Positions 4,416 to 54,907 are shown, counted from the first letter of the stretch. The stretch: 64,000 nucleotides of DNA from Heptranchias perlo (GCF_035084215.1 NC_090362.1:14260001-14324000); one strand, 5' to 3'. A program made the numbers and translations. Notes: generated from the sequence alone by a model not told the origin.

Positions 4416-6079
4416 TTAACGGGAGCACTGACAAACTTTATCTGGGACCCCGAGACATTGTGGTACGGGCACTGTGCAGCCCACAAAGACAAAATGCTTG
4501 GTCAGTCTTGGTCTAGAGGTTTTCTGTACAGCCTGGGGGGCTTGCTGCAAATATTGACCCACTCCTGGGGGCACCCATCTTAATTTCTGAAAGAGAGTGT
4601 CAGCTACCCAAAGGAAAACAGTGCTGTGATTGCAGAAAATGTTTGTGTGTGTGGGTGTGTACACGCATGTACATGTACTAATCGGCCAACAAATACAGGA
4701 AAGTGTTTCTAATCCATTGTGCATCTGTATCTATATGTAACATAAGTCTTGCATTTAGCATGCGCTAACATCCTGTAACACATTCCCTATCACGCATCTC
4801 CTCTGACTCGCTGTAGCGCCAAGGGTGATCTGCTAGTGTGTATGTCCATCCGTTCGTCTGTTGTGTTCTACCCCTAGGGCAGGTCCTAACTCGAATCTCA
4901 CACATGAGATTCTTGAGCCACTTACTAGGAAGAGTAGCTAGTAGTTGATTTTCCATCACTGGCCTCATGGTTTTTATCTTTGGCGTTCCTTCTCCTAGGT
5001 GGGCTGCAATCAAGGCTAAAGAGCCCCACCTACCCTTTACGATGGGGGTGGGGGGCAGCCGCATCCATTGGATGCAAGTCCCCCTCCCTCCCGCTCACCT
5101 GCAGACGTCAACCCAATATTAAGAGCCAGCACTCCGTACGCTGGGGCTGTCTAGAGTGGAGACAGGGATCTGATGACCCTTGTGGACCCCTGTTTGAAAA
5201 GCTATGCAATATGTACACCGTGCAATCCAGTATGTCAGGAACATTTAAAATTGGGGCTCCAATTACTTATCGACTTGTCTCTGTTGCGTAAATTTAGAAT
5301 TAGTATTGACTGAATTGGTTCTTTACATATGTTGACTGTTTTAAAGGTTGGGACTATTTTTTTTTAAAAATTAGCACAGGATGCATGAACTTAGCTGAGG
5401 ACAACTAGTTTTACAATGTTGGCCCAGTTGGGAAGATTCAGGATGGACGTATTGCTATAAACAAACCACAATAAGCACAATAGCACGGTCTCATCCTGGT
5501 CCCTCCGACAGAGGAAAAGGACAGTAATATTCAGGATTGTCATTACATTTATTTAGTGCATTGGTACCAATAATCTGTAGGAAAAATCACATTTAAACCA
5601 ATGCACTTCAATTTGTGATGCTCTTAATTCATCCCGTCCGATAGCTGCCACCACCAGTGACAGACCCTGTACCCATCAGTACCTCACCCGAGTGTTATAC
5701 AGCTCAGAATGCTCTCGCCAGTCACAACCCACGTTTGGAAGGGCCGACTCTGTAATTGTACTGCTGGGTGTTTTTCCACAGTTGAAGTGGGCAGAGTGCA
5801 AGAGTTTCACACACACCAATGATTGCTAAATACTGTAAGCCCAGTGACAGCATTTGTACTATGGAAAGGAACAGTGAGCAGTAACCTCTTTAGGTGGGTG
5901 TTGGTGAGTTGTTCTAATTTCTCATAAACAGAATTAGATAGCAAAGGGACCAGATGGCACACTTTCATCTCTGGAACCTGGGTTCGATTCCAAAACTGAC
6001 TGATAGGATTTGTTCTCTCCACTCTCACTTCCCCCCCCCTCTCGCACCCCATTCCCTCTCCCAAGCCCCCCCCCCCCCC

Positions 6080-6230
6080 GGTTTGATGTGACAGTGTAGA
6101 GGGAGCTTTGCTCTGTATTTAATCTGTGCTGTACCTGACTGTGGAGAGTATGTAAAGCTATAACTGGGTGCCTGAATGTGAGGTGTGTCCTAACACCCGA
6201 CAATCCTCACCTTAATTAGCACAAACTTCA
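6080..6230 (-). mobile_element. Monomeric, diverged copy of the host element of the 67-bp minisatellite
   Basis: GTTTGATGTGACAGTGTAGAGGGAGCTTTGCTCTGTATTTAATCTGTGCTGTACCTGAC is one degenerate unit. It is followed by flank similar to 50681-50755 and 52168-52235. Confidence 0.7.
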
Positions 6231-6750
6231 CTTTTGGGGGGAGGGGGAGGTGGGTACGGGGGAAGCTGAGCTTGTGTGTGGCAGATTTTTAAAAAGTTAT
6301 TAAAAAATCTGGGCTTTGCTGACGGAAATGAAGTGGGCTATAAACAGGATGCAAAAGCCAAAAAAAAATGTAGAATGTAAAAAACTCGGCAATTATGATA
6401 AACTTGTCATGAATGCAGGCTTATTTGCTACAGGAAGTGGTCCTTTTGGATGCTGATAAAATCATTGTTGTTTGCTGCCAGTTAATGAGTTCCATGGGTT
6501 GGCCACAGAAACAAATACTGATGCTCTTCCATTTTTCCTTGCGCTGGAGGTAGTGCGTTTAGTTCCTCGTGTGTTTTATTTGTGCTTTTAGTTATATTGC
6601 GTCAAACTGCATTCGTTGTGTCAGTGGTACAATGTAATAGCGAGTGAGGCTGACTAAGTGTCTTGGGTTGTGGGTGGTGTGAGCACTGATTCCAGCGGTG
6701 GTGTACTGCCACATTTGGAGCTGTGCCACAGGCTGGTGGGTTCGTTTTTA

Positions 6751-9602: not shown

Positions 9603-10122
9603 GAACACTTCAGCAGTCAAGGACATTCAGCCACCGACCTTCGGGTAAGCGTACTCCAAGGCGGCCTTCGAGACACACGACAACGCAAAATCGTCGAGCA
9701 GAAATTGATAGCCAAGTTCCGCACCCACGAGGACGGTCTCAACCGGGATCTTGGGTTCATGTCACGCTACACGTTACCCCACCAGCGAACAAATGTTATC
9801 TGTTTTTAATATAACGGGTCATTTGCTGTCTTTCTCTTCCTTCCGGATGTTTCTATGTTTCTGCCTCTCTTTTTTTTGGTGTTTGTATATTCGGTGGCCC
9901 TGTAGGTAACACCTCTCTGTCTGAACGCTCTGATTGCCTTGGCAACGGGCAGTTGGAAAGACTATCTGTAATCACCAGATATTGTTCTGTGATTTATAAA
10001 TGCGATAGGTTCGAGGATTTAATTTCCACATTCATCTGAGGAAGGAGGAAGCCTCCGAAAGCTTGTGATTTTCAAATAAAATAGTTGGACTATAACTTGG
10101 TGTTGTAAAATTGTTTACAATT
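9603..10122 (+). mobile_element. Penelope-like element 3' fragment (GIY-YIG C-terminus, 3' UTR and pLTR with hammerhead motif)
   Basis: The frame from 9603 reads EHFSSQGHSATDLRVSVLQGGLRDTRQRKIVEQKLIAKFRTHEDGLNRDLGFMSRY, the HF..GH...E...I...GLN pattern of Penelope GIY-YIG ends. The pLTR matches the palindromic copies. AAAGAACA is duplicated at 9600-9607 and 10125-10132. Confidence 0.88.
10032..10068 (+). ncRNA. Minimal hammerhead ribozyme motif in Penelope pLTR
   Basis: TCAT-CTGAGGA-A-GGAGG-AAG-CCTCC-GAAA-GC-TT-GTGA. Confidence 0.65.
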
Positions 10123-10390
10123 AAAAAGAACAAGTCAGACACATGAAAGGTGCTATATAAATGCCAATTTTTTTCTTTAAGTCTTCGGGAACTGCCGTAT
10201 GGTTCTAATAATTTTTCAAAGTCCTCTTCACCCCCTCCCCTGTAAGGTGGGCATTGACGCTATGTTGTTTGACTGTTGCTCTCTCCTGCGCCATCATAGG
10301 CTGATCTCAACCCCACCACCCACCCACACCTCCACCAAGCTGCTTGGCACATTCTCCCCTGCTGCCTTGCTTCTTCCGTCCCTTCTTCAA

Positions 10391-11620: not shown

Positions 11621-11898
11621 TTGGTATAGTTCAAAGCTGCACAGACTGTTCAATGCTGAATGGTTATGCCATGAAAGCTGCTCTGGTAGCAATAAGGAGG
11701 ATGAACGGTGAGGTCACACGGAGCAACATGGTCCAGTGCCTGAGGAGTAAGAGCCCTGAATATAGAGGGGCTCACTCTTCAATTACAGCTGCTTATATAT
11801 TTTAGTTTCATTTGTTGGGGGGAGGAGGGAATTTTGAGCTAATTGAGGTGAGAAGTGTTATTATTTCTGATATTAGATGTCAGCACCAAACGCTCAGC

Positions 11899-14300
11899 GG
11901 GCAGGTACAGCACGGGTTAGATACGGAGTAAAGCTCCCTCCACACTGTCCCATCAAACACTCCCGGGGCAGGTACAGCACGGGTTAGATACGGAGTAAAG
12001 CTCCCTCCACACTGTCCCATCAAACACTCCCAGGGCAGGTACAGCACGGGTTAGATACGGAGTAAAGCTCCCTCTACACTGTCCCATCAAACACTCCCAG
12101 GGCAGGTACAGCACGGGTTAGATACAGAGTAAAGCTCCCTCCACACTGTCCCATCAAACACTCCCAGGGCAGGTACAGCACGGGTTAGATACAGAGTAAA
12201 GCTCCCTCTACACTCTCCCATCAAACACTCCCAGGGCAGGTACAGCACGGGTTAGATACAGAGTAAAGCTCCCTCTACACTCTCCCATCAAACACTCCCA
12301 GGGCAGGTACAGCACGGGTTAGATACAGAGTAAAGCTCCCTCCACACTGTCCCATCAAACACTCCCAGGGCAGGTACAGCACGGGTTAGATACAGAGTAA
12401 AGCTCCCTCCACACTGTCCCATCAAACACTCCCAGGGCAGGTACAGCACGGGTTAGATACGGAGTAAAGCTCCCTCTACACTCTCCCATCAAACACTCCC
12501 AGGGCAGGTACAGCACGGGTTAGATACAGAGTAAAGCTCCCTCCACACTGTCCCATCAAACACTCCCAGGGCAGGTACAGCACGGGTTAGATACAGAGTA
12601 AAGCTCCCTCTACACTGTCCCATCAAACACTCCCGGGGCAGGTACAGCACGGGTTAGATACGGAGTAAAGCTCCCTCTACACTGTCTCATCAAACACTCC
12701 CAGGGCAGGTACAGCACGGGTTAGATACGGAGTAAAGCTCCCTCTACACAGTCCCATCAAACGCTCCCAGGGCAGGTACAGCACGGGTTAGATACGGAGT
12801 AAAGCTCCCTCCACACTGTCCCATCAAACACTCCCAGGGCAGGTACAGCACGGGTTAGATACGGAGTAAAGCTCCCTCTACACAGTCCCATCAAACGCTC
12901 CCAGGGCAGGTACAGCACGGGTTAGATACAGAGTAAAGCTCCCTCCACACTGTCCCATCAAACACTCCCAGGGCAGGTACAGCACGGGTTAGAAACAGAG
13001 TAAAGCTCCCTCCACACTGTCCCATCAAACACTCCCAGGGCAGGTACAGCACGGGTTAGAAACAGAGTAAAGCTCCCTCCACACTGTCCCATCAAACACT
13101 CCCAGGGCAGGTACAGCACGGGTTAGAAACAGAGTAAAGCTCCCTCCACACTGTCCCATCAAACACTCCCAGGGCAGGTACAGCACGGGTTAGATACAGA
13201 GTAAAGCTCCCTCTACACTGCCCCATCAAACACTCCCAGGGCAGGTACAGCACGGGTTAGACATGAAGTAAAGCTCCCTCTACACTGCCCCATCAAACAC
13301 TCCCAGGGCAGGTACAGCACGGGTTAGACATGAAGTAAAGCTCCCTCTACACTCTCCCATCAAACACTCCCAGGGCAGGTACAGCACGGGTTAGATATAG
13401 AGTAAAGCTCCCTCTACACTGTCCTATCAAACACTCCCGGGGCAGGTACAGCACGGGTTAGATACAGAGTAAAGCTCCCTCTGCACTGTCCCATCAAACA
13501 CTCCCAGGGCAGGTACAGCACGGGTTAGATACAGAGTAAAGCTCCCTCTACACTGTCCCATCAAACACTCCCAGGGCAGGTACAGCACGGGTTAGATACA
13601 GAGTAAAGCTCCCTCTACACTGTCCCATCAAACACTCCCAGGGCAGGTACAGCCTGGGTTAGATACAGAGTAAAGCTCCCTCCACACTGTCCCATCAAAC
13701 ACTCCCAGGGCAGGTACAGCCTGGGTTAGATACAGAGTAAAGCTCCCTCTACACTGTCCCATCAAACACTCCCAGGGCAGGTACAGCACGGGTTAGATAC
13801 AGAGTAAAGCTCCCTCTACACTGTCCCATCAAACACTCCCAGGGCAGGTACAGCACGGGTTAGATACAGAGTAAAGCTCCCTCTACACTGTCCCATCAAA
13901 CGCTCCCAGGGCAGGTACAGCACGGGTTAGATACAGAGTAAAGTTCCCTCTGCACTGTCCCATCAAACACTCCCAGGGCAGGTACAGCACGGGTTAGATA
14001 CAGAGTAAAGTTCCCTCTACACTGTCCCATCAAACACTCCCAGGGCAGGTACAGCCTGGGTTAGATACAGAGTAAAGCTCCCTCTACACTGTCCCATCAA
14101 ACGCTCCCAGGGCAGGTACAGCACGGGTTAGATACAGAGTAAAGTTCCCTCTGCACTGTCCCATCAAACACTCCCAGGGCAGGTACAGCACGGGTTAGAT
14201 ACAGAGTAAAGTTCCCTCTACACTGTCCCATCAAACACTCCCAGGGCAGGTACAGCCTGGGTTAGATACAGAGTAAAGCTCCCTCTGCACTGTCCCATCA
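11899..14300 (+). repeat. 67-bp minisatellite array (about 36 units) inside a dispersed host element (about 11828-14430)
   Basis: Unit GGGCAGGTACAGCACGGGTTAGATACAGAGTAAAGCTCCCTCTACACTGTCCCATCAAACACTCCCA. Period is 67 (GCAGG at 11901 and 11968). Confidence 0.97.
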
Positions 14301-14797
14301 GTGTTCTTCAGTCTCAGCCACAGGAGCGCCCCCTACTGCCACCAGTGCAACATTTTCCCATTTTCCACATCAGCTGTCCTTCGGGTGCTTTGTGAGTTAG
14401 CCAGTTTAAAGCTGAATCGGGGCAGTTTGTGCTTTGAGCAACGGCTGCTTTATGTGCTGTTTATTCAGCCCACACCACACCTTTTAGTGGGTTCTTCAGC
14501 GATGACTCATGCGCAAAACAAACCAATGTGGGGAGGGGAGAAGAACATTTTATCTGCTTAATTGAACATGATCACAGGAGAAGCTATTCATTGTTCAAAG
14601 GGATGGGCTTGTTTCACTTGCTCTTGTTTTGTGAATTGATGTTTCACATTTCCTCCACTCCTCGGTTCCACAGGTGCAAGCTGCCATCCAGTACCTCACC
14701 TAACTGACCATTCTTCTAAACAGTGACCATCATTGGAAGGGTATTTTACAATGGCAGAGTATAACGGTCATGCCCACTCTTATTCCCCCTGTAAAAA

Positions 14798-16170: not shown

Positions 16171-16541
16171 TTTTTTTTCTTTTAAAATCAGGAAGTTGTG
16201 GTTAGATGACACTAAGCTTGGGTTTTGAAAGCTTGTAATTTGTAGGAGGAAGGGAAGGCTGAGGAAGGGGAGAAGTTGCCTAATTTGGAGGTATTGGGAA
16301 GAATGAGTTGCAGTAGGAGACGGTGCTTTGAGTATTGATTTCAACATGGGGAGAAGGCACGTAGGAGAAGCAGTGTAGGTATTTGGAGGTTAGGAGGAAT
16401 GAGAGAGGGAAGATCAGAGAAGCAATGACCATAGTAGCAGTGATAAAACAGGTAAGAAAGACTGTGACGGAGAGAATGATTGGAAGCCAGAAGTGAAAGG
16501 GTTACCTGTCTGTGTTCTTTATTCTGTTCTCTGTCCGAGAG

Positions 16542-16754
16542 AAATGTAAGGTATCTTACAACACCAGGTTATAGTCCAACTGTTTTATTTGAAAATCACA
16601 AGATTTCGGAGGCTTTCTCCTTCGTCAGGTGAGCGACGAAGGAGAAAGCCTCCGAAAGCTTGTGATTTTCAAATAAAACAGTTGGACTATAACCTGGTGT
16701 TGTAAGATTCCTCACATTTGTCAACCCCAGTCCATCACCGGCATCTCCACATCA
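16542..16754. mobile_element. Penelope-derived inverted (palindromic) pLTR pair with a one-sided ~35-nt extension
   Basis: Arms at about 16542-16626 and 16635-16719 are reverse complements with few mismatches. They are followed by GTCAACCCCAGTCCATCACCGGCATCTCCACATC. Confidence 0.88.
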
Positions 16755-18290: not shown

Positions 18291-18630
18291 GAAACTTGCA
18301 TTTACATAGAGTTTTATTAAGTGTATCAAACATCCCAAAGCACTTCATGTACACTGAATTGGTTTGAAGTGCGGTTTGTGTTGTTGTGGCACACAGTAAG
18401 GTCCCACAAACTGTAATGAGATAAATGAGCAGTCAGTGTGTTTTGGTGATATAGTGTCAGGGTCTTTAATATCTACCTGAACCATTGGAGCAGGCAGAGA
18501 GGACATCTGTTTAGCATCTAATCCGAAGGACAGCGCAGCACTTTCTCAACACTGCACTGGAGTGCCAGCCTCGATTATATACTCGAGTGAGGCTTGAAAC
18601 CACAACCTTGTGACTCTGAGGCAAGAGTGC
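18291..18630 (-). mobile_element. Deu-domain SINE, degenerate
   Basis: AACTTGCATTTACATAG...CCCACAAAC...CACTGCACTGGAGTGCCAGCCT...CACAACCTTGTGACTCTGAGG. Confidence 0.75.
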
Positions 18631-20487
18631 GTGTTCCCAGGGACACCCCCTCCTGCGGATTAGTGCGCGCTGCCAGGGACCCCCTCCCCCCGGCGGATTA
18701 GTGCGCGCTCCCAGGGACCCCCCCCCCCCTTGGATTAGTGCACGCTCCCGGGGACCGGCCCCCCCTCCTGCGGATTAGTGCGCGCTCCCGGGGACCGGCC
18801 CCCCCTCCTGCGGATTAGTGCGCGCTCCCGGGGACCGGCCCCCCCCTCCTGCGGATTAGTGCGCGCTCCCAGGGACCGGCCCCCCCTCCTGCGGATTAGT
18901 GCGCGCTCCCGGGGACCGGCCCCCCCTCCTGCGGATTAGTGCGCGCTCCCGGGGACCGGCCCCCCCCTCCTGCGGATTAGTGCGCGCTCCCGGGGACCGG
19001 CCCCCCCTCCTGCGGATTAGTGCGCGCTCCCGGGGACCGGCCCCCCCTCCTGCGGATTAGTGCGCGCTCCCAGGGACCGGCCCCCCCCTCCTGCGGATTA
19101 GCGCGCGCTCCCAGGGACCCCCCCCCTCCTGCGGATTAGCACGCGCTCCCAGGGACCCCCCCCCCCCCCCCGCGGATTAACGCGCACTCCCAGGGACCCC
19201 CCCCCCCCTGCGGATTAGCGCGCGCTCCCAGGGACCCCCCCCTGCGGATTAGTGCGTGCTCCCAGGGACCCCCCCCCCGCAGATTAGTGCTCCCAGGGAC
19301 CCCCCCCCTCCTGCGGATTAGCGCGCGCTCCCAGGGACCCCCCCCCACCTCCTGCGGATTAGCGCGCGCTCCCAGGGACCCCCCCCCCTCCCTCCTGCGG
19401 ATTAGTGTGCGCTCCCAGGGACCCCCCCCCTCCCTCCTGCGGATTAGTGTGCGCTCCCAGGGACCCCCCCCTCCCTCCTGCGGATTAGTGTGCGCTCCCA
19501 GGGACCCCCCCCCTCCCTCCTGCGGATTAGTGTGCGCTCCCAGGGACCCCCCCCCCACCCACCTCCTGCGGATTAGTGCGCGCTCCCAGGGACCCCCCCC
19601 ACCTCCTGCGGATTAGTGCGCGCTCCCAGGGACCCCCCCCACCTCCTGCGGATTAGTGCGCGCTCCCAGGGACCCCCCCCCCCACCTCCTGCGGATTAGT
19701 GCGCGCTCCCAGGGACCCCCCCCCACCTCCTGCGGATTAGTGCGCGCTCCCAGGGACCCCCCCCCCTCCCTCCTGCGGATTAGTGCGCGCTCCCAGGGAC
19801 CCCCCCCCCTCCCTCCTGCGGATTAGTGCGCGCTCCCAGGGACCCCCCCCCCCCTGCGGATTAGTGTGCGCTCCCAGGGACCCCCCCCCCCCCCACCCAC
19901 CTCCTGCGGATTAGTGCGCGCTCCCAGGGACCCCCCCCCCCACCTCCTGCGGATTAGTGCGCGCTCCCAGGGACCCCCCCCCCCCCTGCGGATTAGTGCG
20001 CGCTCCCGGGGACCCCCCCCACCTCCTGCGGATTAGTGCGCGCTCCCAGGGACCCCCCCCCTCCTGCGGATTAGTGCGCGCTCCCAGGGACCCCCCCCCC
20101 TGCGGATTAGTGCGCGCTCCCAGGGACCCCCCCCCCTGCGGATTAGTGCGCGCTCCCAGGGACCCCCCCCCTCCCCCCTGCGGATTAGCGCGCGCTCCCA
20201 GGGACCCCCCCCCCCACCTCCTGCGGATTAGTGCGCGCTCCCAGGGACCCCCCCACCTCCTGCGGATTAGTGCGCGCTCCCAGGGACCCCCCCCCCTGCG
20301 GATTAGCGCGCGCTCCCAGGGACCCCCCCCCCTGCGGATTAGTGCGCGCTCCCAGGGACCCCCCCCCCCTCCTGCGGATTAGTGCGCGCTCCCAGGGACC
20401 CCCCCCCCCTCCTGCGGATTAGTGCGCGCTCCCAGGGACCCCCCCCCCTGCGGATTAGCGCGCGCTCCCAAGGACCCCCCTCTGCGA
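18631..20487. repeat. GC/CpG-rich minisatellite array, copy 1 (about 35-48-bp units, roughly 45 units)
   Basis: Core CCTGCGGATTAGTGCGCGCTCCCAGGGAC plus a variable C-run, with CCGG, CACCT and TCCCT variants. Confidence 0.95.
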
Positions 20488-20772
20488 ATATAGGCAAATG
20501 TAAGTTCCAAAGGACCTTATGTCCCAATTGCAGGACTGAGAGTTATCCAAGGAAAAATCTATTATTGCAGAAAATGTGTTTTTATTAGTGTACAGCAACA
20601 GGAATAATGTGCTAGTGTGTCAACACATTCCAAAAAGTGATGAGTGCAGAATCCTTGAGACAACCATGTTTGCAGCACACGCTATGCTCTGCCCTAGCCA
20701 GACCGATATCTGATGACCTTGGAGATTCCCTGGGATCCTTTCAAGGACCTCAGTTTGAAAACCTGTGTTTTA
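20488..20772. mobile_element. Old non-autonomous DNA-transposon-like repeat abutting the GC minisatellite (duplicated at 22882-23166)
   Basis: TTGCAGAAAATGT.TTTTATTAGTGTACAG.AACAG is shared with about 44995-45150, and more loosely with about 4540-4650 and 7960-8090. It ends in GTTTGAAAACCTGTG, resembling hAT-type MITE ends. Confidence 0.45.
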
Positions 20773-21267
20773 CAAGCCTGTAGATTGTAGAATGAAGTGC
20801 AGACTGTAGAATGTAACGGCTAAAAACTGTTTGAGTTCCTGGGAGCGAATGAGTTTGAACGATGAGTCTTGATTTCAATACAGTGAGGATGTCGGAGAAA
20901 TGTATTTTTTTTTTTCTTCAACCACCTAAATGTCCATAGTATTTGCGATTATGCAGAGGGTCACCTCAGTGTCTTACAGAGCAGTGGCTACCCAGGGAGC
21001 AGGGGGAGGAAGAGAAGGTTGAGGAGGGGGCAAAAGCATAGTCGAAGGGAAGAGTCTTGAGGCATCTGACGGCAAGGAGGGGAGTGTGAAGACTCGGAGT
21101 ACTGAAGGAGAGGGTTGGAAAGGCTGAAGCAAGGTGGCTGGAGAGGCATCCACAAATAGTGGGGACAGAGGGAGCGGGGAAGGAGAGGTTGGCTGGTGTG
21201 GGAGGACTATACTGAGGCAAACAGCTGGAGAAATGGGGCAAGGAGAGGTGAGGATGTGGAGGGATTT

Positions 21268-22880
21268 GTGCGCGCTGCCAGGGACCCCCTCCCCCCGGCG
21301 GATTAGTGCGCGCTCCCAGGGACCCCCCCCCCCCTTGGATTAGTGCACGCTCCCGGGGACCGGCCCCCCCCTCCTGCGGATTAGTGCGCGCTCCCGGGGA
21401 CCGGCCCCCCCTCCTGCGGATTAGTGCGCGCTCCCGGGGACCGGCCCCCCCTCCTGCGGATTAGTGCGCGCTCCCAGGGACCGGCCCCCCCTCCTGCGGA
21501 TTAGCGCGCGCTCCCAGGGACCCCCCCCCTCCTGCGGATTAGCACGCGCTCCCAGGGACCCCCCCCCCCCCCCGCGGATTAACGCGCACTCCCAGGGACC
21601 CCCCCCCCCCTGCGGATTAGCGCGCGCTCCCAGGGACCCCCCCCTGCGGATTAGTGCGTGCTCCCAGGGACCCCCCCCCCGCAGATTAGTGCTCCCAGGG
21701 ACCCCCCCCCTCCTGCGGATTAGCGCGCGCTCCCAGGGACCCCCCCCCACCTCCTGCGGATTAGCGCGCGCTCCCAGGGACCCCCCCCCTCCCTCCTGCG
21801 GATTAGTGTGCGCTCCCAGGGACCCCCCCCTCCCTCCTGCGGATTAGTGTGCGCTCCCAGGGACCCCCCCCTCCCTCCTGCGGATTAGTGTGCGCTCCCA
21901 GGGACCCCCCCCTCCCTCCTGCGGATTAGTGTGCGCTCCCAGGGACCCCCCCCCACCCACCTCCTGCGGATTAGTGCGCGCTCCCAGGGACCCCCCCCAC
22001 CTCCTGCGGATTAGTGCGCGCTCCCAGGGACCCCCCCCCACCTCCTGCGGATTAGTGCGCGCTCCCAGGGACCCCCCCCCCACCTCCTGCGGATTAGTGC
22101 GCGCTCCCAGGGACCCCCCCCCACCTCCTGCGGATTAGTGCGCGCTCCCAGGGACCCCCCCCCCTCCCTCCTGCGGATTAGTGCGCGCTCCCAGGGACCC
22201 CCCCCCCTCCCTCCTGCGGATTAGTGCGCGCTCCCAGGGACCCCCCCCCCCCTGCGGATTAGTGTGCGCTCCCAGGGACCCCCCCCCCCCCACCCACCTC
22301 CTGCGGATTAGTGCGCGCTCCCAGGGACCCCCCCCCCCACCTCCTGCGGATTAGTGCGCGCTCCCAGGGACCCCCCCCCCCCTGCGGATTAGTGCGCGCT
22401 CCCGGGGACCCCCCCACCTCCTGCGGATTAGTGCGCGCTCCCAGGGACCCCCCCCCTCCTGCGGATTAGTGCGCGCTCCCAGGGACCCCCCCCCCTGCGG
22501 ATTAGTGCGCGCTCCCAGGGACCCCCCCCCCTGCGGATTAGTGCGCGCTCCCAGGGACCCCCCCCTCCCCCCTGCGGATTAGCGCGCGCTCCCAGGGACC
22601 CCCCCCCCCACCTCCTGCGGATTAGTGCGCGCTCCCAGGGACCCCCCCCACCTCCTGCGGATTAGTGCGCGCTCCCAGGGACCCCCCCCCCTGCGGATTA
22701 GCGCGCGCTCCCAGGGACCCCCCCCCCTGCGGATTAGTGCGCGCTCCCAGGGACCCCCCCCCCCTCCTGCGGATTAGTGCGCGCTCCCAGGGACCCCCCC
22801 CCCCTCCTGCGGATTAGTGCGCGCTCCCAGGGACCCCCCCCCTGCGGATTAGCGCGCGCTCCCAAGGACCCCCCTCTGCG
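21268..22880. repeat. GC/CpG-rich minisatellite array, copy 2 (roughly 40 units)
   Basis: Same unit and variant order as copy 1, but 4 instead of 9 CCGG-type units. Confidence 0.95.
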
Positions 22881-34770: not shown

Positions 34771-37700
34771 TTCTCTGTATTTGTTTTTTTTTTTTAAAAG
34801 TGTCAACGCAATTTGGATCTTATCGTGTTTGACTTGTAATCTGAAGCGGTCTGTTCTACTTTAATGAGTATGCTAGAAATGGTCATAGGCATACTTGAAC
34901 GCACTTCTGTATAGCACAATGGAACAAACCCTTAATGAATGTTCAGTATATTCATTAGAATTTGTAGATAATATCGAATACTGATCTTTTTTCCCTCTTT
35001 GACAAAGTGGCATTGATTTTTATCAAGGGTTCCTTTGTGAGACACAAAAATGGACCCCCAGAGGAGGATGCCCATAGGGATTAGGTAACAGAATAATGGA
35101 TACCCGAGACTGGGTTATAGGACTGAAATCTAATCGAGTGGTTCAGATGATGTCAGAAGCCATGATGGTGAAGCTGTTTGTCACTTGAGCTCAAAGATGA
35201 GATTGTCCCCTCAAACTCTCCCCATAATCTGGCAGTTTTATGTTTACTTTTAGCCGCCCTCTCCTCTCCTGTAGAAGCTGCCTCTCGTTGGGGTACAATT
35301 CTACAGACCCAAGCAAACCTTTCCATGACCCTCCCCAAGTGACCATTCTTCAAGTGACTCCATTCAAACAGTCTACTGACACTCTCTGTCTAACCTTGCA
35401 ACATGGACCACCTGGGTGAGGGAATTCCTACTGCAGCTGAGCTGTGGCTATTTGACCCCTTGGCAATCTGGCTCTCGAAGCCCAGAGAACTCAGTCCTGT
35501 TTACACTTTTCCAATTCGCTGGTTTGTTCATGTTTGAATTTTGTGGGCCTGGAGGTTTGGAAAGGGCTGTTCTTGATACTGTTTCCACCTCACTGGTGGA
35601 AAAATTCTAAATCAGAAGTCCAAGATCTGCTAGTATCAACAACTTGAGAAACATGCAAACATGGATTTTAACCTTTATAATTGGTTGAGGCTGCAAGGCC
35701 CACACTGTGGCCCATGGAGAATAAAGTCTGCCGTCCTGCTACTTCCCCCTATCAGTATCCTAGTGGCCTCTGAGAGTGACTTTACCAATTGGTGACAAAC
35801 TAGGGGCAGTTTTATTACTGTAGTCCATACCTGCTGGATATTGGGATGAGACTGTTCCAATTTCACGAAGGGTGTTTGCATCCAACAGAGAGGGGGGGAA
35901 AGAAAAATGAGCACCCCAACAGTGCGGCTGGGATCAAGCCAGACTGCCCAAAGTGAAAGAAGCACATCTGATCGACTGCACTGGAATGGGAAGGGGGAAA
36001 ATACTGAGGGGTGTGAGGGATTGAGTCTCCCAATGTTCCCAATGGCAGGGAGCATGATAATCGTCTTCACTCACATCCTTTGATACTCTTAACAATCAGG
36101 CATCGCCTTGTCCTCCCCTCTTCTATTGGTGGCCGCTGGTTCAGCCATTACCAGCTGTTTGGAACCCACTGCCCAGTTCTCTCTGTATCACCACGACCCT
36201 CCTCAAAAATCCTTCTCTTCAACCATGCCGTTGGTATCTATCTTCCCATTTTTTTCCCCTTTTGGTTTTCTTGCTTGACATCCACTGTTTTGTCCTTTTT
36301 TTAATGTTAACAGTCTGGAGATGTCTTCCTGCAGATGGATAACACCGTGACGATGGTGATCAGGAACAGGCAACAAAAGGAAAGAAATAATGGGGGGGGG
36401 GAGGGGGGAAGGGAGAGTCCCCAAAAAAACTAACTTGTGTATGTTTTTCTGGGCTGTTGGAATTCCAAACCTTTGTTCCTTTTTCTCCAGTGTGGAAGAA
36501 AGGTAGTGTCAAAGATTAATGATTAACAAACTGAAGAATGGGTGTATTCTAAGAAGGGCCATTTAAAATTCATAGCGCTGAGATTTTGCCTCCTCGGTGC
36601 TTGTTTTGATGTTGGAGTGTTTCCCCTGCTTATTGTAACTTGAGCGGTTCCTGTGCCACCTCCTTCACTAGGAGGACCTCCAAAAGATGGAAAAGATGGC
36701 CGTGAGAACATGCTGACCTAATATAACATCCTGATTTTTATCAGCCCCCGCCGATGTTGTTGACTGTTGCTGGGGCAATGGATCCACAGGTGCTAGCTGG
36801 CCTCCAGTATCTTGCCCAAGTGGCTATCATTGTGTGAACCTCGATGGTGAGTGTCACCAGCCTATTTGGCCCCAACGGCCTTGTAGCCCAGCACGATCCT
36901 ATACTCACCTTCTGGTATTTATGCTTGCTAGAGAATAGCGATCAAGCTTTCCATAGAAAGGACACAAGACCTCACTGGGAGATGGACGAAATGGTTCCTT
37001 TTTGGGAGGAGCAGTCTTGCTGTTATCTTCCACACAATATAGGTGAAGTCTTTACTTCCTCTCCCTCTTGAAGGCGTTGACAGTACCATGGCCACTGGCG
37101 TCCTTTTGGTACCTCGTCTAAGTGGCCATTCTTCCAACCTTGAGCCTTGTCTTTGCATTTCAACAGGCTTTCGACAGTGGGGGGGCATCACAGCCAAAGC
37201 CTGATCCTGCCCTGATCAGGACGCTTTCTAGTATGAGTCACTGGATAGTGATCAGCAGCAGGAACCGTGGTTTTTTCTTCTTGTTTCCCTAGCTCTAGGG
37301 CCAATGGTAGCGGCCACACTGCTGTCCTAGCTGACATCAATTTATCAGAAGCATACACCGTTTGCAGTTGGCTTAGCACCCCTACTCTAGAGCAGGGAGA
37401 GCCAGGATAGGCTTCCCACTCCCGATTATTATCGAGTGACACCCCCCCCCCAGCTAGAAAGTACACATGTGGGTATAAAATCAGCGCAGCAGCGGGTTTG
37501 GCTGTGATACACCTCACAGTCAAACGCCCCGCCAACCTCATTGGGCTCCCAAATAAAGAATGGCTAGGTGGCAGAGTGCAGCCAGTGCCCATGGAGCCGT
37601 ACCCCAATACGAGCCAATGCCTCGAGGAGAAGAGGGCGCAAAACGAGGGATCTTGTGGAAGAGTTTATAAGAATGAATGGGGTGTTGTATTTTTATTTTG

Positions 37701-38218
37701 TGTAAGGTAACGGGATCCAAAGTGCCCATGAAGAGGAAAACTCAATGCACCTTCTGCATTCACCAAGGCCTAATTATCTAGAAAGCAATAGATAACATCC
37801 CTGGTATCAAATATTTAACATGGAGAGCTATTTAAACTGTAAACCCAAGGATACCTCATTGGGAGGATTGAATGCCGCCTGGCCTGTCATTTTGTCTAAA
37901 GTTCCATTCACGCTCATTCCCATTGCAGGACCTAGTGTGAGATACGATCGATTGCACGAGTGAGGTGGATGCTGTATCTCTCATTCTATTCTGATTGTTG
38001 AAGGACATAAATCTTCTGCAGGAACCTTAACCCTTTGACTATATTTAGGGCTGGAAAAAATAATGTGCACTCAGACGCATTAACCTGTATCCATGGCGAT
38101 CCTTGATTTTCTTTGTTTAAACAACAACCTTCGCTAAATGTGGTGGGTGCAATTTGTTTTTTGCTTGTGAATTTTGTACTCCTTACAAATGAAGGATGTT
38201 GGTGCTGGGGAATGAAGC

Positions 38219-38384
38219 TAGATACAGAGTAAAGCTCCCTCTACACTGTCCCATCAAACACTCCCAGGGCAGGTACAGCACGGGTTAGATACAGAGTAAA
38301 GCTCCCTCTACAGTGTCCCATCAAACACTCCCAGGGCAGGTACAGCACGGGTTAGATACAGAGTAAAGCTCCCTCTACACTGTC
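38219..38384 (+). repeat. 67-bp minisatellite, about 2.5 units, in host element about 38168-38530
   Basis: Units are essentially identical to the 11899 consensus. The 3' flank is homologous to 14300-14430 and to the reverse complement of 49990-50075. Confidence 0.92.
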
Positions 38385-39825
38385 ATCAATGTGCCTCAGT
38401 CTACCCTCAGAAGAGCGTCCCCTACTACACCAATGTGACATTTTTCATTTCCCACACCAGCGAGCCTGTGGCCTCTCTGAGCGAGATTGCCAATTTAATG
38501 CAAAACTGGGTGCAATTTTGTGCTGTCGACCAATGCCCACTGCGAACTAGGTTGAGACTATGTGCTAGATTTCACTAATTGAGGCAGGGTTTTGATGGGG
38601 CGGGACTGCCACCCTTCCCTCCTCTCCAACTCTACTGCAAGGCCAAACCATTTTCTTGAGTCGGGGTCATTGGCTGTATAGTGCGGGTTCTCAGCAGGAT
38701 CCCTGCTCCCAAGAGGCAGCCTACCAAGGCTGGAGGGGAATGAGGCGGTGTTGCAGCAGAAAAGGCAGCGAGGTACCTTAGGGGGGTGGAGAGGGGAGCG
38801 GGGGCAGCAGCAAAGACTGAGGCCTATAAAAAGTAAGGGCTGGAAGCCAGATAGGAGGGCGAGGTGGCCCGTACTGCACCCTCATTCACGGACATCGGAC
38901 CAATTACCAGCACCGTCCACTGGTGGGGGGGGGGGGAGCGGATGGATGAGGAATGGGCTGGGAGACTGGGCCCCCTGTCCACAGCCAGTTACATGCAGTG
39001 GCAGGGAATGGGGTAAAGGGAGACAAGCAAGGGTTCAGGCAGGTGCAGCAAATCCAGGCCAGGGCAGCGTGGTGGCAGTAGGCCTCACCGTCCCATTACT
39101 TTCCGCTGTTGTCCTCCCCGATTTGTGACAGAATAGCAGAGGGAAATTGCGTCCCTACATGTAGCAGAGAGAAGACTTTTCGTCCCATGAAGTCTGCCTT
39201 GAATTGGAGCTCCCGAGGTGAAAACCCCATGTCCAATGGATCAGAGGGAGAAAACCAGAGATTGGGAATGAGTGAGGGGAAAAGGGAATAGAGGGATATA
39301 AGGTCAGGGTGGGAAGAAGTAATTAGAGTGGGAGGAGGCTCGTGTGGAATGGCCTGTAGATTCCATGTAATTCAATCAAAAGTTTGGACAAAACTTGACT
39401 GGGCCATTCTGGAAGAACTTGCCACAAACTTCTGTTACCAGAAAGAGTTAATTGAAGGTGAATCAGCCTTTCCAATTTTCTCCTCTCCTCAATCTGAAGG
39501 TGCTGACTCATTTTTGTGCCTTCGGCACCTTGCCCAAGTGAACATTATCCCTCACCGACTTGCCTCACTCTCAAACCTGTCGGCACAGGAGCACCAGATT
39601 AGCCATATTCTGGGTGAAATGGAACACCGCACTGGTTTTGGGTGCAGCCAAGCAGTAACGACAAAACATGGCGGATAAAAGTTTTCATACACGCGATTTT
39701 GAAGAAAAAAAGAGGAGCCTGTGCTGACCAGCAAGGAGGCCTGTTCCACAAGTGGGCCAGGTCAGTTTTTCTCAAAGCCCAGTCTGTGCAGGCAGTGGTC
39801 ACTCCCCAACCGAGCACATTACGTA

Positions 39826-42660: not shown

Positions 42661-42679
42661 GTATGTATCATATGATAAC

Positions 42680-42805
42680 ACTGCTGTAGGGGATACTTTT
42701 GAGGTCGGGGCTGAGACACATTGATGGGGCAGTGTAGACGGAGTTTTACTCTGTGTCTAATGCGTGTTGAACCTGACCTGGGAGTGCTTCTTGGGGATAC
42801 TGGGT
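42680..42805 (-). mobile_element. Monomeric, diverged copy of the 67-bp host element
   Basis: One degenerate unit (TTGATGGGGCAGTGTAGACGGAGTTTTACTCTGTGTCTAA...ACCTGACCTGGGAGTG) plus a flank matching 38385-38430. Confidence 0.75.
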
Positions 42806-42819
42806 TAGTTGGGGCTTTG

Positions 42820-42956
42820 TTTCAATTCCAGCCCAGAGTGAAAAGATGAAAGTTTATATTGCTGGTTGTAAGGGTTCTATGCAAAATGAGTTTGGACAGA
42901 CTCAACCCAGTCCCTAGGGGGAATGTGCCTACACAAGACTGACCCAATTCAGCACC
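42820..42956 (+). mobile_element. Possible LF-SINE-like fragment
   Basis: TTCAATTCCAGCCCAG...TATGCAAAATGAGTTTGG..CTCAACCCAGTCCCTAG resembles my recollection of the LF-SINE body. A related head lies near 48343. Not verified. Confidence 0.4.
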
Positions 42957-42990: not shown

Positions 42991-43425
42991 GTTCCGTTCA
43001 CCCATCACCCCTATTCTCGCTGACCTACATTGGCTCCCAGTCCTCCAATGCCTCAAATTTAAAATTCTCATCATTGTGTTCAAATCATGGCCCTGCCCCC
43101 TCCCTATCTCTGTCATCCTCCTCCAACCTCCAAGATTTCTGCGTTCCTCCAATTCTGGCCCCTTGTTGAACCTCCCCTTCGCCCCACCGTTGGCGGCCGT
43201 GCCTTCTGCTGTCCAGGCCCTAAGCTCTGGAATTCCCTCCTTAAACCTCTACCCCTCTCTGCTCCTTTAAGATGCTCCTTAAAACCTACCTCTTTGACCA
43301 AGCTTTTGGTCACCTGTCATAATATCATCTCCTTTGGCTTGATGTCAATTCTTTTGTCTGATTACACTGCTGTGAAGCTCTTTGTTACGTTTAACTGCAT
43401 TAAAGATGCTACATAAATGCCAGTA
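42991..43425 (+). mobile_element. L2 LINE 3' fragment
   Basis: SPITPILADLHWLPVLQCLKFKILIIVFKS followed by the L2 3' UTR. TTAGAATGGTAAAT occurs at both about 42975-42988 and 43427-43440, consistent with a TSD. Confidence 0.88.
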
Positions 43426-44214
43426 GTTAGAATGGTAAATGGAAAATATCAAAGTTGCGCAGCAGGGATGACTTTTCTAAGACTCATTGTTGGAGTAGAG
43501 TGGAGAGGATTTCTGTGCTCTACCTGACCGATGTTGGCGCTGCATGTCCGATAATGGGGAGAATCATCTCCTCCCCAGCACTTGCCTCCCTCACCTGGGT
43601 GAACATCAGACTTGTTAAAAAAAAAAGTTATTAAAAAGAAGAAATTGTTCAGAGACCTGAGGAACTGAGCTCTAAACGTAGTTAAATGAAGTCGCCACTT
43701 TGGAGTCCAGAGAGGTTACAGTCTGTTTGTGGAAATGGGATTTTCCTTCTACTTGCGTAGGTATATATTGTGTAAGCAGGAACAGAACACACTGTGATTT
43801 TTAAGAACTCGACTGCCAGTCTCAGTCAACAGAGTGCGTTCTGTCTCCGATCGAGCGATCCACCCCGAGCCAGAGGCTAGTTTGTTTGTACGTTGGTGTT
43901 GGTGTTTTGGAAAATACCAGCCTGTTTATCAGTGGGAGGGGGGGGGGGAAACAGACTTTTGGCTTCTATGGTATGGGGAGGTTAGAAAAAATATACAACC
44001 AACCTCCCAGAACTTGCAGCTTGTTAAACTCGAACATTTGTATATTCTGTGTCAACATTACCTGAAAGCTGCTTATTTTTATTAAAAATAAAGTGTTGAG
44101 AATGGAGTGAATCTTTCTGTTTTCTCGTCCTGGGTTGCTGGCCCAAGTTTACATGTAGAAGTACAGCATGGTCTTTGTGTAGGACTGTATCACAAGCACT
44201 GTGAATTTGTGCAT

Positions 44215-49963: not shown

Positions 49964-50086
49964 TTTCTATCTGGTTTCTAGTGAGCAAGGGCCTACAGCA
50001 CAATATTGCCCCTAATTTGGCACTGATTGACAATATCAAGCAGGCAGGCTTCAGGCTAGGTGTGGGAAATGGGAAAAAAAACAATT

Positions 50087-50681
50087 TAGAGGGAGCTTTA
50101 CTCTGTATTCAACCCGTGCTGTACCTGCCCTGGGAGTGTTTGATGGGACAGTGTAGAGGGAGCTTTACTCTGTATCTAACCCGTGCTGTACATGTCCTGG
50201 GAGTGTTTGATGGGACAGTGTAGAGAGAGCTTTACTCTGTATCTATCCCGTGCTGTACATGTCCTGGGAGTGTTTGATGGGACAGTGTAGAGAGAGCTTT
50301 ACTCTGTATCTAACCCGTGCTGTACCTGCCCTGGGAGTGTTTGATGGGACAGTGTAGAGAGAGCTTTACTCTGTATCTAACCCGTGCTGTACCTGCCCTG
50401 GGAGTGTTTGATGGGACAGTGTAGAGAGAGCTTTACTCTGTATCTATCCCGTGCTGTACATGTCCTGGGAGTGTTTGATGGGACAGTGTAGAGGGAGCTT
50501 TACTCTGTATCTAACCCATGCTGTACCTGCCCTGGGAGTGTTTGATGGGACAGTGTGGAGGGAGCTTTACTCTGTATCTAACCCATGCTGTACCTGCCCT
50601 GGGAGTGTTTGATGGGACAGTGTAGAGGGAGCTTTACTCTGTATCTAACCCATGCTGTACCTGCCCTGGGAGTGTTTGATG
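50087..50681 (-). repeat. 67-bp minisatellite, about 9 units, in host element about 49990-50755
   Basis: Reverse complement of the 67-bp unit. Both flanks are homologous to those of the 11899 and 38219 arrays. Confidence 0.95.
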
Positions 50682-51740
50682 CTGACATTGGATGCCTGAA
50701 ATGGAAATTGTTCCATTCCTAATCACTGACATCCTTCACCTTGATCAGTGCATTCAATAATGCGGGAAATACAGAGTAGGTCAATCAACATCTGAAAGAG
50801 GAGAAAAAAACACAGTTCACGATTCAGGTGCAGACCTTCTGCTCGAGACCACCGGGAAAGTTGGGGTCGGTTCTGACAAAAGATCACACCTGAAATGTTA
50901 ACCTTCACTATCAGGTACTGACTGACCTGTGCGTTTCCTGAAAATATGTTTTAAAAATTTCACGATGCAGTAGGGCAGGTCCAGTGATAAACGATCTTTG
51001 GTGCGTCTGAGAGACTGGCATTTAAACAACGAAGATGCCTTTCGGGGGTGGGGGGTGTTGGGGGGTGGGCAGGGAAATAGAACATACTTTCTTCTATTTT
51101 AAAAAAAAATGAAGCTGTGCATGAGATTGACCTGACAGCACAAAAATGGAACTGGGAGGAGGGTATTGGGAAGAAGAATTCAGCAAGAAATTGGCAAAAC
51201 AAAGGGCAGGGCGGAGGAACCAAATATTAAAACCAGAACTCAGACACAAGAAAATTCAGTCCTTTTCTTTGTGATTGCAGTATCTGAACTAGTTGCTTTG
51301 AAGACGGTGCCTGTGGTTTTATATACGTAGACTGGATGTAGATCAGTAATCCAGAAAAAATTGGAACCCCTCATGGCGATGTCCACAAATTCTGATGTCA
51401 TCCTGTCGCCAGCTGGCCAGCAGTTGTACACTCCTCATCTTGTGCACAGCCCGACCATTGTGTGTTTTATTTTTAAACTCTCCTTCCCCCTCTCATTCTC
51501 TCCCTTCCCCTCCTCTGCCCTCCTCTCCAGAGGCGCTGACTGCTTGCTGGGCTCCAGTTCCGTGGGTTCTGCTCACTCTCCAGTACCTCGGCCAAACCCA
51601 CCACTTGCCACCTTTTGAGTCCGGACTGCAGGTCTCCGCACACTACGGAGACACGGAGAGCTTCTTGGCCGATTCTTTCCTCGTCCGACATCCACTTCCC
51701 AGAGTGAGTCACCGAATAGTGCTCGGGACGTTCTGAGTTT

Positions 51741-52168
51741 GGGACAGTGTAGAGGGAGCTTTACTCTGTATCTAACCCGTGCTGTACCTGCCCTGGGAGT
51801 GTTTGATGGGACAGTGTAGAGGGAGCTTTACTCTGTATCTAACCCGTGCTGTACCTGCCCTGGGAGTGTTTGATGGGACAGTGTAGAGGGAGCTTTACTC
51901 TGTATCTAACCCTGTACCTGCCCTGGGAGTGTTTGATGGGACAGTGTAGAGGGAGCTTTACTCTGTATTTAACCCGTGCTATGGCTGCCCCGAGTGTTCG
52001 ATGGGACAGTGTAGAGGGATCTTTACTCTGTATCTAACCCGTGCTCTCCCTGCCCTGGGAGTGTTTGATGGGACAGTGTAGAGGGAGCTTTACTCTGTAT
52101 CTAACCCGTGGTGTACCTGCCCCGAGTGTTTGATGGGACAGTGTAGAGGGATCTTTACTCTGTATTTG
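51741..52168 (-). repeat. 67-bp minisatellite, about 6 units with variants; host flank to about 52235
   Basis: Reverse-complement units with local variants (GGGATCTTT, GTGTTCGAT, GGCTGCCCCGAG, short deletions). Confidence 0.93.
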
Positions 52169-52800
52169 GATACTCAAAATGGGAAAGAGTTCCATTCCCC
52201 AGCCCTAACATCCCTCACCTGATGAACACAAAATTCGCTCACTAAAAGAAATGGTATGTGAAATAAATTGAGCTTTTCTCGGCCTCACTGCCCCCTGGTG
52301 GAGAAGTGCCTGAATTCACCTGACAGTCTGGCTGAGATTGAAAACTCGATCTGGGAGGGGATATGGGGAGAGGAGCAGAGGTGACATGTTTGTAGACATC
52401 TGGGATCCTGGGTCACAGCTGCTGCGTTTGCACAGAGCAGCATCGGAATGCACACACGATCATTCCTCTGACTCTGCACTAGGATAGGAAGGTGCAAATG
52501 CAGTCCAGAGTGCAACAGGATAGCCTCATATTGTGCACTCTTAATGTAGTACTCAAAATGTTCACCAGTGACCTGTACGTAAAGAAAGAACTTGCGTTTA
52601 TGTAGTTCCTTTTACTTCAGGATGTCCCTAAATGCTTCTCAGCCTAGAATTAGTTTTGATGTGGAGATGCCGGTGATGGACTGGGGTTGACAATTGTAAA
52701 CAATTTTACAACACCAAGTTATAGTCCAACAATTTTTATTTGAAATCTACAAGCTTTCGGAGGCTTCCTCCTTCGTCAGGTAAATGTTCCTGACAATGTT

Positions 52801-53273
52801 CCATTTTGAGTATCCAAATACAGAGTAAAGATCCCTCTACACTGTCCCATCGAACACTCTGGGCAGCCACAGCACGGGTTAGATACAGAGTAAAGCTCCC
52901 TCTACACTGTCCCATCAAACACTCCCAGGGCAGGTACAGCACGGGTTAGATACAGAGTAAAGCTCCCTCTACACTGCCCCATCAAACACTCCCAGGGCAG
53001 GTACAGCACGGGTTAGATACAGAGTAAAGCTCCCTCTACACTGCCCCATCAAACACTCCCAGGGCAGGTACAGCACGGGTTAGATACAGAGTAAAGCTCC
53101 CTCTACACTGTCCCATCAAACACTCCCAGGGCAGGTACAGCACGGGTTAGATACAGAGTAAAGCTCCCTCTACACTGCCCCATCAAACACTCCCAGGGCA
53201 GGTACAGCACGGGTTAGATACAGAGTAAAGCTCCCTCTACACTGTCCCATCAAACACTCCCAGGGCAGGTACA
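52801..53273 (+). repeat. 67-bp minisatellite, about 7 units, inverted relative to 51741-52182
   Basis: Starts with CCATTTTGAGTATCCAAATACAGAGTAAAGATCCC, the reverse complement of 52148-52182. Confidence 0.93.
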
Positions 53274-53281
53274 CTCCTGAC

Positions 53282-53322
53282 ATTTACCTGACGAAGGAGG
53301 AAGCCTCCGAAAGCTTGTAGAT
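53282..53322 (+). ncRNA. Minimal hammerhead ribozyme motif (mirror copy on - strand at about 52745-52785)
   Basis: ATTTAC-CTGACGA-A-GGAGG-AAG-CCTCC-GAAA-GC-TT-GTAGAT. Stem I is ATTTAC/GTAGAT. Confidence 0.75.
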
Positions 53323-54907
53323 TTCAAATAAAAATTGTTGGACTATAACTTGGTGTTGTAAAATTGTTTAGAATTAGTTTGTATGAGTAGTCACTGATGT
53401 TGTATAGACAAATGAGGCAGCTAACTTGTGCATGGAAAGATCCCACAGGCAGCAGTAATCTGTTTTTTTGCTTGTGGTGGTTGAGGGGAAAAAATTGACC
53501 AAAGCAACGGGGAGAACTCCCCTGCTCCTCTTTGAAATCGTGCCACGGGATCTTTTACATCTGCCCGAGAGGTCCAACGAAGACTCTGTTTAACCTCTCA
53601 TCCGAAAGACAGCACCTCCAACACTGCAGCACTCCCTCGGGTCTGTACTGGAGTATAAGGAGAGCAAGTCTCTTTATTGCACAGTGTTCACAGCATAATA
53701 TCCAGATTCAGTGAGATGGAAGCGCATTTGAAACTGGTGTAAGATGATTGTATTTTAAATAGTGATAAATTTTAATATTAGAACATTTGCTCATTTAAAA
53801 ATACTGGTTTAAAGTACAGAACTTAGTTTAAACTGAGGCTAAAGACGTTGTGTGGGTAGGTTGTGTTTTTATCAGCTCTGAAGCAGAGCCCATTAAGCCC
53901 AGGAAAAGGGGACGATGTCCCTTAAAGTTAATTATCCAGTAAAAAATTCCTGAAGGATCAGTCATCTCTCCGTACGGCAGATGGATAAACCACAGGAATC
54001 GATTGTCGTGGCCTATGGACAGGCTTGATCATCTCGAAGGAATGTGTGTGACTGACTGCTGCTCTCTGAGCGTGTTTTCACAGGGCACTTCATTCTTTAA
54101 CTTGCCTGCCTGTGGGAATGAAAACAACAGAGTCTTTTTGGAGAATGGTATTTGAGGCTGAATCGTGACACCTGTTTTTTTTTTCTCTCTTTCTGATGCA
54201 GGTAGCCACAAATGCACGTAGTGTACTGTACAACTCAGCCTTGTTTACACAGGAGACTTCAGACATGGTGGGGTTGGGGGGGGGGAGATTTGGTGCAGAT
54301 TATCCAGAGTAAGGTTCAAAGTTTTACTGTAAACCTGATTCTTAAAAATAGAATTTTTAGTGTGCTGCAAAGCTGGAAAGACCAGGAGAGCCAGTGCCAA
54401 GTTCAAACCATTGCTGAGGTAACTCAACTATGTTGGGGCTACAATTATCCCCATTGCCTCTGGGCTGGGAGGGGCGGGGGGGGGGGGGGAAAATACAACC
54501 TGGGTTTCAGCTCCTGTGCTGGTGTGGGTGGACCACAATTGGGCTGGATTGTGATGCCCCTCAAGGTTGAATATCCCAGTGACATTTGCTGTCTTGGGCG
54601 AGGCATGCAGGGCGGTCAGTCGGGTGAGGTAATGAAGTGTTGCTGGTGGCCGTGGAACTGTACTCCAGTGAGAGGCTGCACTTTCAGAAGAGAGCAAAAG
54701 AAATGATTGGATTGGTATTTTGATTCTTTGGAAAGATCGTCATGCAATCGGTCAGTGATTCCTTCAGGTTTTTGTGCCAACTCACTATAGAAGAACGTTG
54801 CTCTTCAGTCAGTATGACTGTATGATATGCTTCTGAGATATTCTTAATTCATCACTGCAAATTGTTCCCACTATTGCTAGCACTCCCCCATATGTACTTT
54901 ACTTTAG

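Follow-up and report, generated by a model that had tools for sequence, protein, structure and literature searches.

A 67-bp tandem repeat with near-identical arrays in old, diverged copies of its parent element in the shark Heptranchias perlo

Introduction

Satellites have been proposed to reach new loci by carriage on transposable elements (TE), as eccDNA or by interlocus conversion (PMC11610590; here and throughout, published work is referred to as far as the accessible part of each text goes). The closest precedent for spread to pre-existing homologous loci is found on the X chromosome of Drosophila simulans and D. mauritiana, where an Rsp-like satellite has spread into clusters of the 1.688 satellite and where both interlocus conversion/SDSA and eccDNA have been proposed as routes (10.1101/846238). 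The 67-bp repeat described here resembles that system in that near-identical young arrays sit at pre-existing, older repeat loci. Rsp-like arrays also have one characteristic and one variable junction, some of them with deletions, which may have a counterpart here in two arrays (C and E below). The Rsp-like invader and its target are unrelated sequences; it gets in through microhomology and then hitchhikes on sequence of the target (10.1101/846238). The target of the 67-bp repeat, in contrast, is its own parent element, with the unit itself supplying the homology, and its hosts are single old copies dispersed in a vertebrate genome.

Multilocus minisatellites that derive from transposable elements and were seeded by short direct repeats are known as well (PMC6947457). 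In Alu, B1 and MaLR elements the unit is an internal segment of the element located between short direct repeats and expanded at several loci, and the 67-bp unit is of the same kind. In five Alu-derived arrays the units resembled one another more than they resembled any other locus, indicating a local origin (PMC3389668); in contrast, the distance between units of different loci here equals that within loci. The Cast satellites of Tribolium and the central repeats of non-autonomous transposable elements likewise form short, dispersed arrays in gene-rich DNA with extensive inter-locus exchange (PMC11610590), but the flanks of the arrays reported here are old and have not moved with the array, and the arrays occupy a fixed position of their host and not A/T-rich sites.

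The 67-bp repeat is not described in the accessible parts of several shark genome or SINE papers (PMC10620051, PMC5499810, PMC13100897, PMC11406177) or of PMC5753468. A literature search that included a full-text motif search returned no account of it; subscription papers, Repbase/Dfam and supplements may hold one. What sets the repeat apart from the precedents is that the target is the parent of the satellite itself and that most of the host copies in this window are occupied.

Results

The window analysed here, that is the whole stretch of 64,000 nucleotides from Heptranchias perlo (GCF_035084215.1 NC_090362.1:14260001-14324000), contains five arrays of the 67-bp repeat as determined with TRF: B (11899-14300, 35.9 copies), C (38219-38384, 2.5 copies), E (50087-50681, 8.9 copies), F (51740-52165, 6.5 copies) and G (52818-53273, 6.8 copies). 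An earlier note on this DNA had listed the first four together with single monomers at about 6081 and 42721, all of which were confirmed, and had missed array G at 52818. As we delimit it, array B comprises 36 units at 11884..14300 (+), with the first 15 bases of unit 1 being an old, diverged remnant. The repeat makes up 6.3% of the window and is located around a gene of the insulin-receptor family.

This gene is represented by an exon at 28777-29328 (+) that matches the Receptor L domain and leads from the L1 domain into the cysteine-rich region. Its best solved relatives are IGF1R and INSR, with a score slightly nearer to IGF1R than to INSR; the adjoining exons were looked for and the next one was not identified. 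A LINE with APE endonuclease and RT domains, frameshifted and split over three frames, lies at 31388-34125 (-), and another RT fragment is present near 59698-60453. A commoner SINE-like family, which we take to be SacSINE1-like, has at least 11 copies in the 64-kb window. Besides the 67-bp arrays, the window contains a 4.2-kb array of a unit of about 40 bp with variable poly-C tracts (18626-22874); its left end directly adjoins one of the SINE-like copies (18389-18630), and no monomer of its unit was found elsewhere in the window. A 23-bp purine/pyrimidine-skewed unit is present in 114 copies with 99% matches at 1-2625 and runs off the start of the window.

Profile searches of the window revealed that the 67-bp unit belongs to an old dispersed element of about 350 bp, of which seven copies with the unit region were found. 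Arrays B, C, E and F are located at one fixed position of this host, so that four of the seven copies are occupied and four of the five arrays lie inside host copies, with G as the exception. Host copy C (38165..38570, +) contains 2.5 units at 38219-38389, host copy E (49975..50765, -) contains nine units at 50081-50681 and host copy F (51740..52240, -) 6.4 units at 51740-52167. For B, the right flank is in register (14296..14450, +; leave-one-out E 1.3e-8), and the weakly supported left flank has an internal deletion of about 18 nt (11827..11883, +). The monomeric copies are A (6081..6236, -), with a left flank and a poly-G end, D (42670..42850, -), with a short right flank, and H (43400..43615, -; nhmmer E 8e-9), which has both flanks and a unit shortened by deletions. 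H as well as a fragment I that consists of the right flank only (35715..35870, +; leave-one-out E 1.7e-5) were absent from the list of the earlier note.

In leave-one-out profile searches, 11 of 13 flanks were matched with E values from 4e-20 to 0.1, four of them only at 0.014-0.1. The left flanks of B (11899) and D (42721) gave no match in these searches, and the left flank of B is identified by a 33-bp, 82% match to copy A (6081). Two further host candidates at about 3019 and 7418 were dropped, since their E values (3.4 and 1.4) were no better than those of the reversed-window control.

Several features of the host copies were seen in passing. Monomer A ends at 6060-6090 (-) in the first 8 bases of another unit, followed by poly-G in place of the host right flank, so that A may be what is left of an older array. 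Visual inspection of the alignments showed an 11-bp direct repeat at the left host end (e.g. 38168-38182) and again in the right flank (about 38514-38524). Read on the opposite strand, the host may resemble the body and 3´ part of LF-SINE, a vertebrate tRNA SINE, and the 67-bp unit may have similar tandem repeats in the assemblies of other sharks. Neither Rfam nor tRNA scans of the whole window yielded a match, and no tRNA head joined to the host copies was found. One of six flanks scanned has a tRNA B-box-like motif at about 5970-5985, 100 bp from monomer A, which could be the head of the host after a deletion or part of an unrelated element.

The unit is the host segment between two CATCAA hexamers located 67 nt apart, in agreement with the direct micro-repeats that had been proposed to bound it. 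Of the features expected for a minisatellite of the Haber-Louis type, an internal segment that also occurs as a monomer was found (three monomer and four array copies share flanks), as was a direct repeat of 5-10 bp bounding the unit (CATCAA at both ends). Locus-specific units were not found: the majority consensus of each of the five arrays is identical to the global consensus at 67/67 positions (0/67 differences), so that the near-identity of expanded units across loci, already apparent before, holds for all five arrays. With gaps excluded, the units differ from this consensus by 0.6% in C, 1.8% in G, 2.9% in B (70/2412 differences), 3.1% in F and 3.3% in E, and units exactly equal to the consensus number 5 of 36 in B and 0 of 9 in E. 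Distances between units are 0.023-0.063 between loci and 0.016-0.053 within loci.

The flanks of the array hosts are far more diverged. Pairwise distances are 0.27-0.47 for the left flank (6 pairs) and 0.29-0.41 for the right flank (3 pairs), values based on small MAFFT alignments, in which misalignment has probably raised them to some extent; pairwise distances were used instead of trees because the array consensuses are identical. Leave-one-out flank differences range from 13/66 to 58/182 for the four array hosts, and compared with the 0/67 differences between consensuses this gives Fisher p values of 1e-9 to 6e-5 for each host. The hosts are about ten times more diverged than the units. The statement in the earlier note that both flanks are shared between loci and diverged was right with regard to divergence and needs amendment for copies A (6081) and F (51740), in which the right flank is missing.

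The unit of monomer A differs from the unit consensus at 14/73 and that of D at 12/73 positions (16-19%), and the two differ from each other at 20/73; both were found via unit similarity, which biases them towards conservation, and the sample amounts to three monomers in one 64-kb window. Unit position 18 is T in all three monomers (by eye in H) and in no array unit, and position 33 is A in both scorable monomers (A and D) and in no array unit, with G18/G33 being shared by all arrays. Three units of array E carry A at diagnostic position 18. Three changes fall on the lineage leading to the array consensus versus 11 and 9 that are private to the monomers (relative-rate p 0.03 and 0.08), which is suggestive of a frozen master lineage. 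Independent slippage from local monomers fits poorly with identical consensuses next to old flanks: even if old monomers were just 12% diverged, four of them expanding independently would all yield the consensus with a probability of about 1e-15.

The earlier note had named three outcomes that would speak against its reading, namely units as diverged as the flanks, monomers as near to the consensus as array units, and a young transposon that already carried the array. Unit divergence lies far below flank divergence, the monomers are clearly further from the consensus than the array units, and the flanks are old.

The junctions between arrays and hosts differ from locus to locus. In comparison with a window-derived reference, 62 nt are missing at the left junction of C, 43 nt at the left junction of F and 59 nt at the right junction of E, as expected from the earlier description of junctions at differing positions that lack tens of bases. 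The right junction of C and the left junction of E are in register; one in-register and one deleted junction are thus present in each of C and E, a pattern absent from B. Deletions were found at 3/7 array-host versus 0/5 monomer junctions, an excess that is not significant (p=0.20). Microhomologies of 2-3 bp were seen at the junctions by eye.

At the edge of B, five differences fall into the first 15 bases (P 6e-5 at 3%), and at the edge of E, four fall into the 28 bases of the last unit (P 0.009). Both remnants fit conversion tracts that ended inside the original monomer; degenerate array edges are also expected under ordinary tandem turnover (PMC11610590). The remnants stop before positions 18 and 33, and the original bases of the hosts at these positions are unseen. 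Array F shows a gradient, with 15 events in 233 bp beside the host versus 1 in 203 bp distally (p 6e-4; the split was chosen after viewing), and the location of diverged units near the host and of consensus units distally suggests that F was refreshed from outside.

Within the arrays, private variants are arranged in block order, including higher-order copies of two and three units. Some block-copied multi-base variants have the look of single events (B21-22, 13206-13390; E4, E7 and E8, 50150-50480). Four variants are common to several arrays versus 2.8 expected from recurrent mutation (P 0.31), and since this is no excess, exchange among these five arrays is unsupported. A clear signal of GC-biased conversion was not detected either, with 16 weak-to-strong versus 14 strong-to-weak events (50 versus 34 by copy). 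The stop-free translation of array B, compared with longer proteins only, yielded 13 candidates, none of them significant. An exact unit-motif scan of prokaryotic genomes found 0 loci and a comparison of the unit with a plasmid collection no match; a single 21-bp unit match in a Sphingobacterium genome (L001 3000-3020) has no tandem structure and was rejected as a chance match.

Array G (52796..53274, +) consists of 6.8 units preceded by about 20 bp of the host flank of F, which is all that it has as a left flank. It is an inverted copy of F or of F's ancestor located about 630 bp away, with the F junction and private variants in common, and is bounded by an 8-bp direct duplication (52788-52795 and 53275-53282). 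G lies at the tip of a palindromic remnant (52645..53380, no strand assigned) with arms at 52692-52787 and 53280-53375 that are identical at 95/96 positions and with a 12-bp target duplication (52645-52656 and 53369-53380). Other remnants of this kind, which are about 220 bp long, were seen as empty palindromes at 25216-25457 and 16539-16754 and as a single arm at 10028-10123. The arms of the empty palindromes are 90/90 identical and nearly identical, and the remnants are 84-93% alike across loci. Duplications of 12 bp were found at two of the three palindromes checked and a degenerate one at the third.

A hammerhead-like fold of the minimal type was obtained for two of three copies folded (z -1.8 and -0.75); Rfam hammerhead models did not match the remnant, and a relaxed scan of 52600-53500 gave two chance-level matches. 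No Penelope ORF was found among the 17 of 81 window ORFs that were scanned; RT matches lie elsewhere, two of them beside an APE endonuclease domain. Penelope-like elements have minimal hammerheads and inverted pLTRs that capture host DNA; by comparison with the published elements, the palindrome around G, with its inverted arms, its target duplication and a possible hammerhead-like core, looks Penelope-like (PMC4209133, PMC3846280). The likeness concerns G only, and in contrast to those elements the insert has an 8-bp duplication of its own; it may have been inserted later, in the course of repair. With G there is a case of array DNA being copied into a break, here at a non-homologous site, and it is therefore an instance of copying, not of homing.

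Discussion

Taken together, we consider it moderately probable that arrays in old hosts are seeded or overwritten by homology-guided ectopic copying from a pool of arrays, and that their copy number is set by local slippage. The 67-bp unit would have arisen once or early, by a duplication of the Haber-Louis type between the two CATCAA micro-repeats, and a large pool of arrays with one dominant sequence would have formed; the five identical consensuses in 64 kb suggest that this pool is genome-wide. When the DNA breaks within or close to an existing array or an old host copy, the broken end would copy several units from an array elsewhere, presumably guided by the homology that remains in the unit and possibly by way of interlocus gene conversion or SDSA-type templated repair. 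Such repair would often leave one precise junction and one with a deletion, and consensus units would replace the middle of the old monomer while old remnants stay at the edges. Slippage or unequal exchange would then set the copy number and spread private variants, and later events would refresh parts of the arrays.

The identical consensuses, the old flanks, the edge remnants and one ectopic array copy are direct observations, and there is good support for units of non-local origin. Homing itself is likely, judging from one window. The arrays may have entered the hosts directly as multimers, or they may have been born in place by duplication and overwritten afterwards; the data of this window would fit either course. 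None of the 11 copies of the commoner SINE-like family has an internal 67-bp array. For classical homologous recombination, on the other hand, 67 bp with an identity of 80-85% would be a short substrate. Since parts of the arrays are between 0.5% and 6.4% away from the same consensus, the data point to repeated seeding or refreshing from a persistent pool rather than to a single master spread. The recent spread of one master unit suggested in the earlier note is upheld insofar as an ectopic array copy (G) was seen; a single spread is too simple in view of this range.

A more far-reaching version of this model is that the repeat is an endonuclease-free homing minisatellite, which is both break-prone and the commonest template for repair, converts monomeric copies of its parent across a vertebrate genome (4/7 in the window) and keeps its sequence nearly frozen, possibly with the help of LINE or Penelope-like RTs. 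We put this forward as a tentative idea, about which we are more doubtful than confident.

The donors might also have been free multimers, either circles of eccDNA or transcripts of the arrays that a LINE or Penelope-like RT had copied, which integrated into host copies or primed on them. Satellites are found on eccDNA in flies and beetles (10.1101/846238; PMC11610590) and unrelated sequence can be captured between solo pLTRs (PMC3846280), and both the location of G inside a Penelope-like palindrome with an 8-bp duplication and the arrival of the founders of B, C, E and F without donor flank would be in line with such donors. However, neither a poly-A tail nor a target duplication was seen by eye at B, C, E or F, and the flank and private variants of a donor 630 bp away are present in G, in line with the copying of a local template. 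We regard free donors as unlikely.

Another explanation, which seems to us quite improbable, is that the arrays are old, arose in place and are closed, with unmutated units out-replicating mutated ones so that the ancestral sequence is kept. The micro-repeat seed for such arrays is present in the host, the variants are almost all private, and the branch leading to the array consensus is short (3 changes as against 11 and 9), which would permit some constraint. According to Moran arithmetic, however, about 4 differences would be fixed in an array of 3 units even at a 50% penalty per mutation, and about 6 differences in arrays of 7-9 units at a 10% penalty; penalties appear to be weak, since variants in B reach 10 and 12 of 36 units. 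In addition, the same changes at positions 18 and 33 would be needed in every array, and the unit is without unusual folding: two units folded as DNA were no better than shuffles (z -1.1 and -0.8), which also leaves a hairpin-driven explanation unsupported.

Selection on the unit region, for instance as an exapted binding motif, could hold arrays and monomers near one sequence, and A and D are indeed nearer to the consensus in the unit (16-19%) than in most flanks (23-48% leave-one-out). But A and D differ from each other in the unit as much as the closer flank pairs do (20/73), H is without much of the unit, and ascertainment accounts for part of the contrast between unit and flank, which makes selection a very remote explanation.

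Transposition of a younger host subfamily that already carried the array, comparable to SVA, Helitrons and MITEs with central repeats, would account for the G18/G33 common to all arrays, and the left flanks of array hosts are on average 0.39 apart (6 pairs) versus 0.43 from A and H (8 pairs). Flanks as young as the array and shared junctions were not found, though: array-host flanks differ by 27-47% and units by 2-6%, and the junctions vary by locus, so that we think such a subfamily hardly credible. Multi-copy tandem repeats are prone to mis-mapping, and polishing with reads from other arrays might have pulled the units towards a genome consensus; this is scarcely probable given how few units in B and E equal the consensus (5/36 and 0/9), the ordering of private variants in blocks that include higher-order copies, the private variants common to F and G, and array C, which is 171 bp between unique flanks.

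With homology-guided copying as the favoured reading, the repeat bears on the long-standing question of how satellites reach new loci and how they remain alike across them, which is usually clouded by target sites of unclear age. Here, each array lies in a dated carrier, with the old flanks serving as a clock and the monomers representing the state before invasion. If the window is typical, the repeat would make up a large share of the genome and could mislead both assembly and the dating of repeats. With the genomes of related species, it would become possible to measure in a vertebrate how fast interlocus conversion proceeds, how it depends on distance, how long its tracts are and which type of donor it uses.
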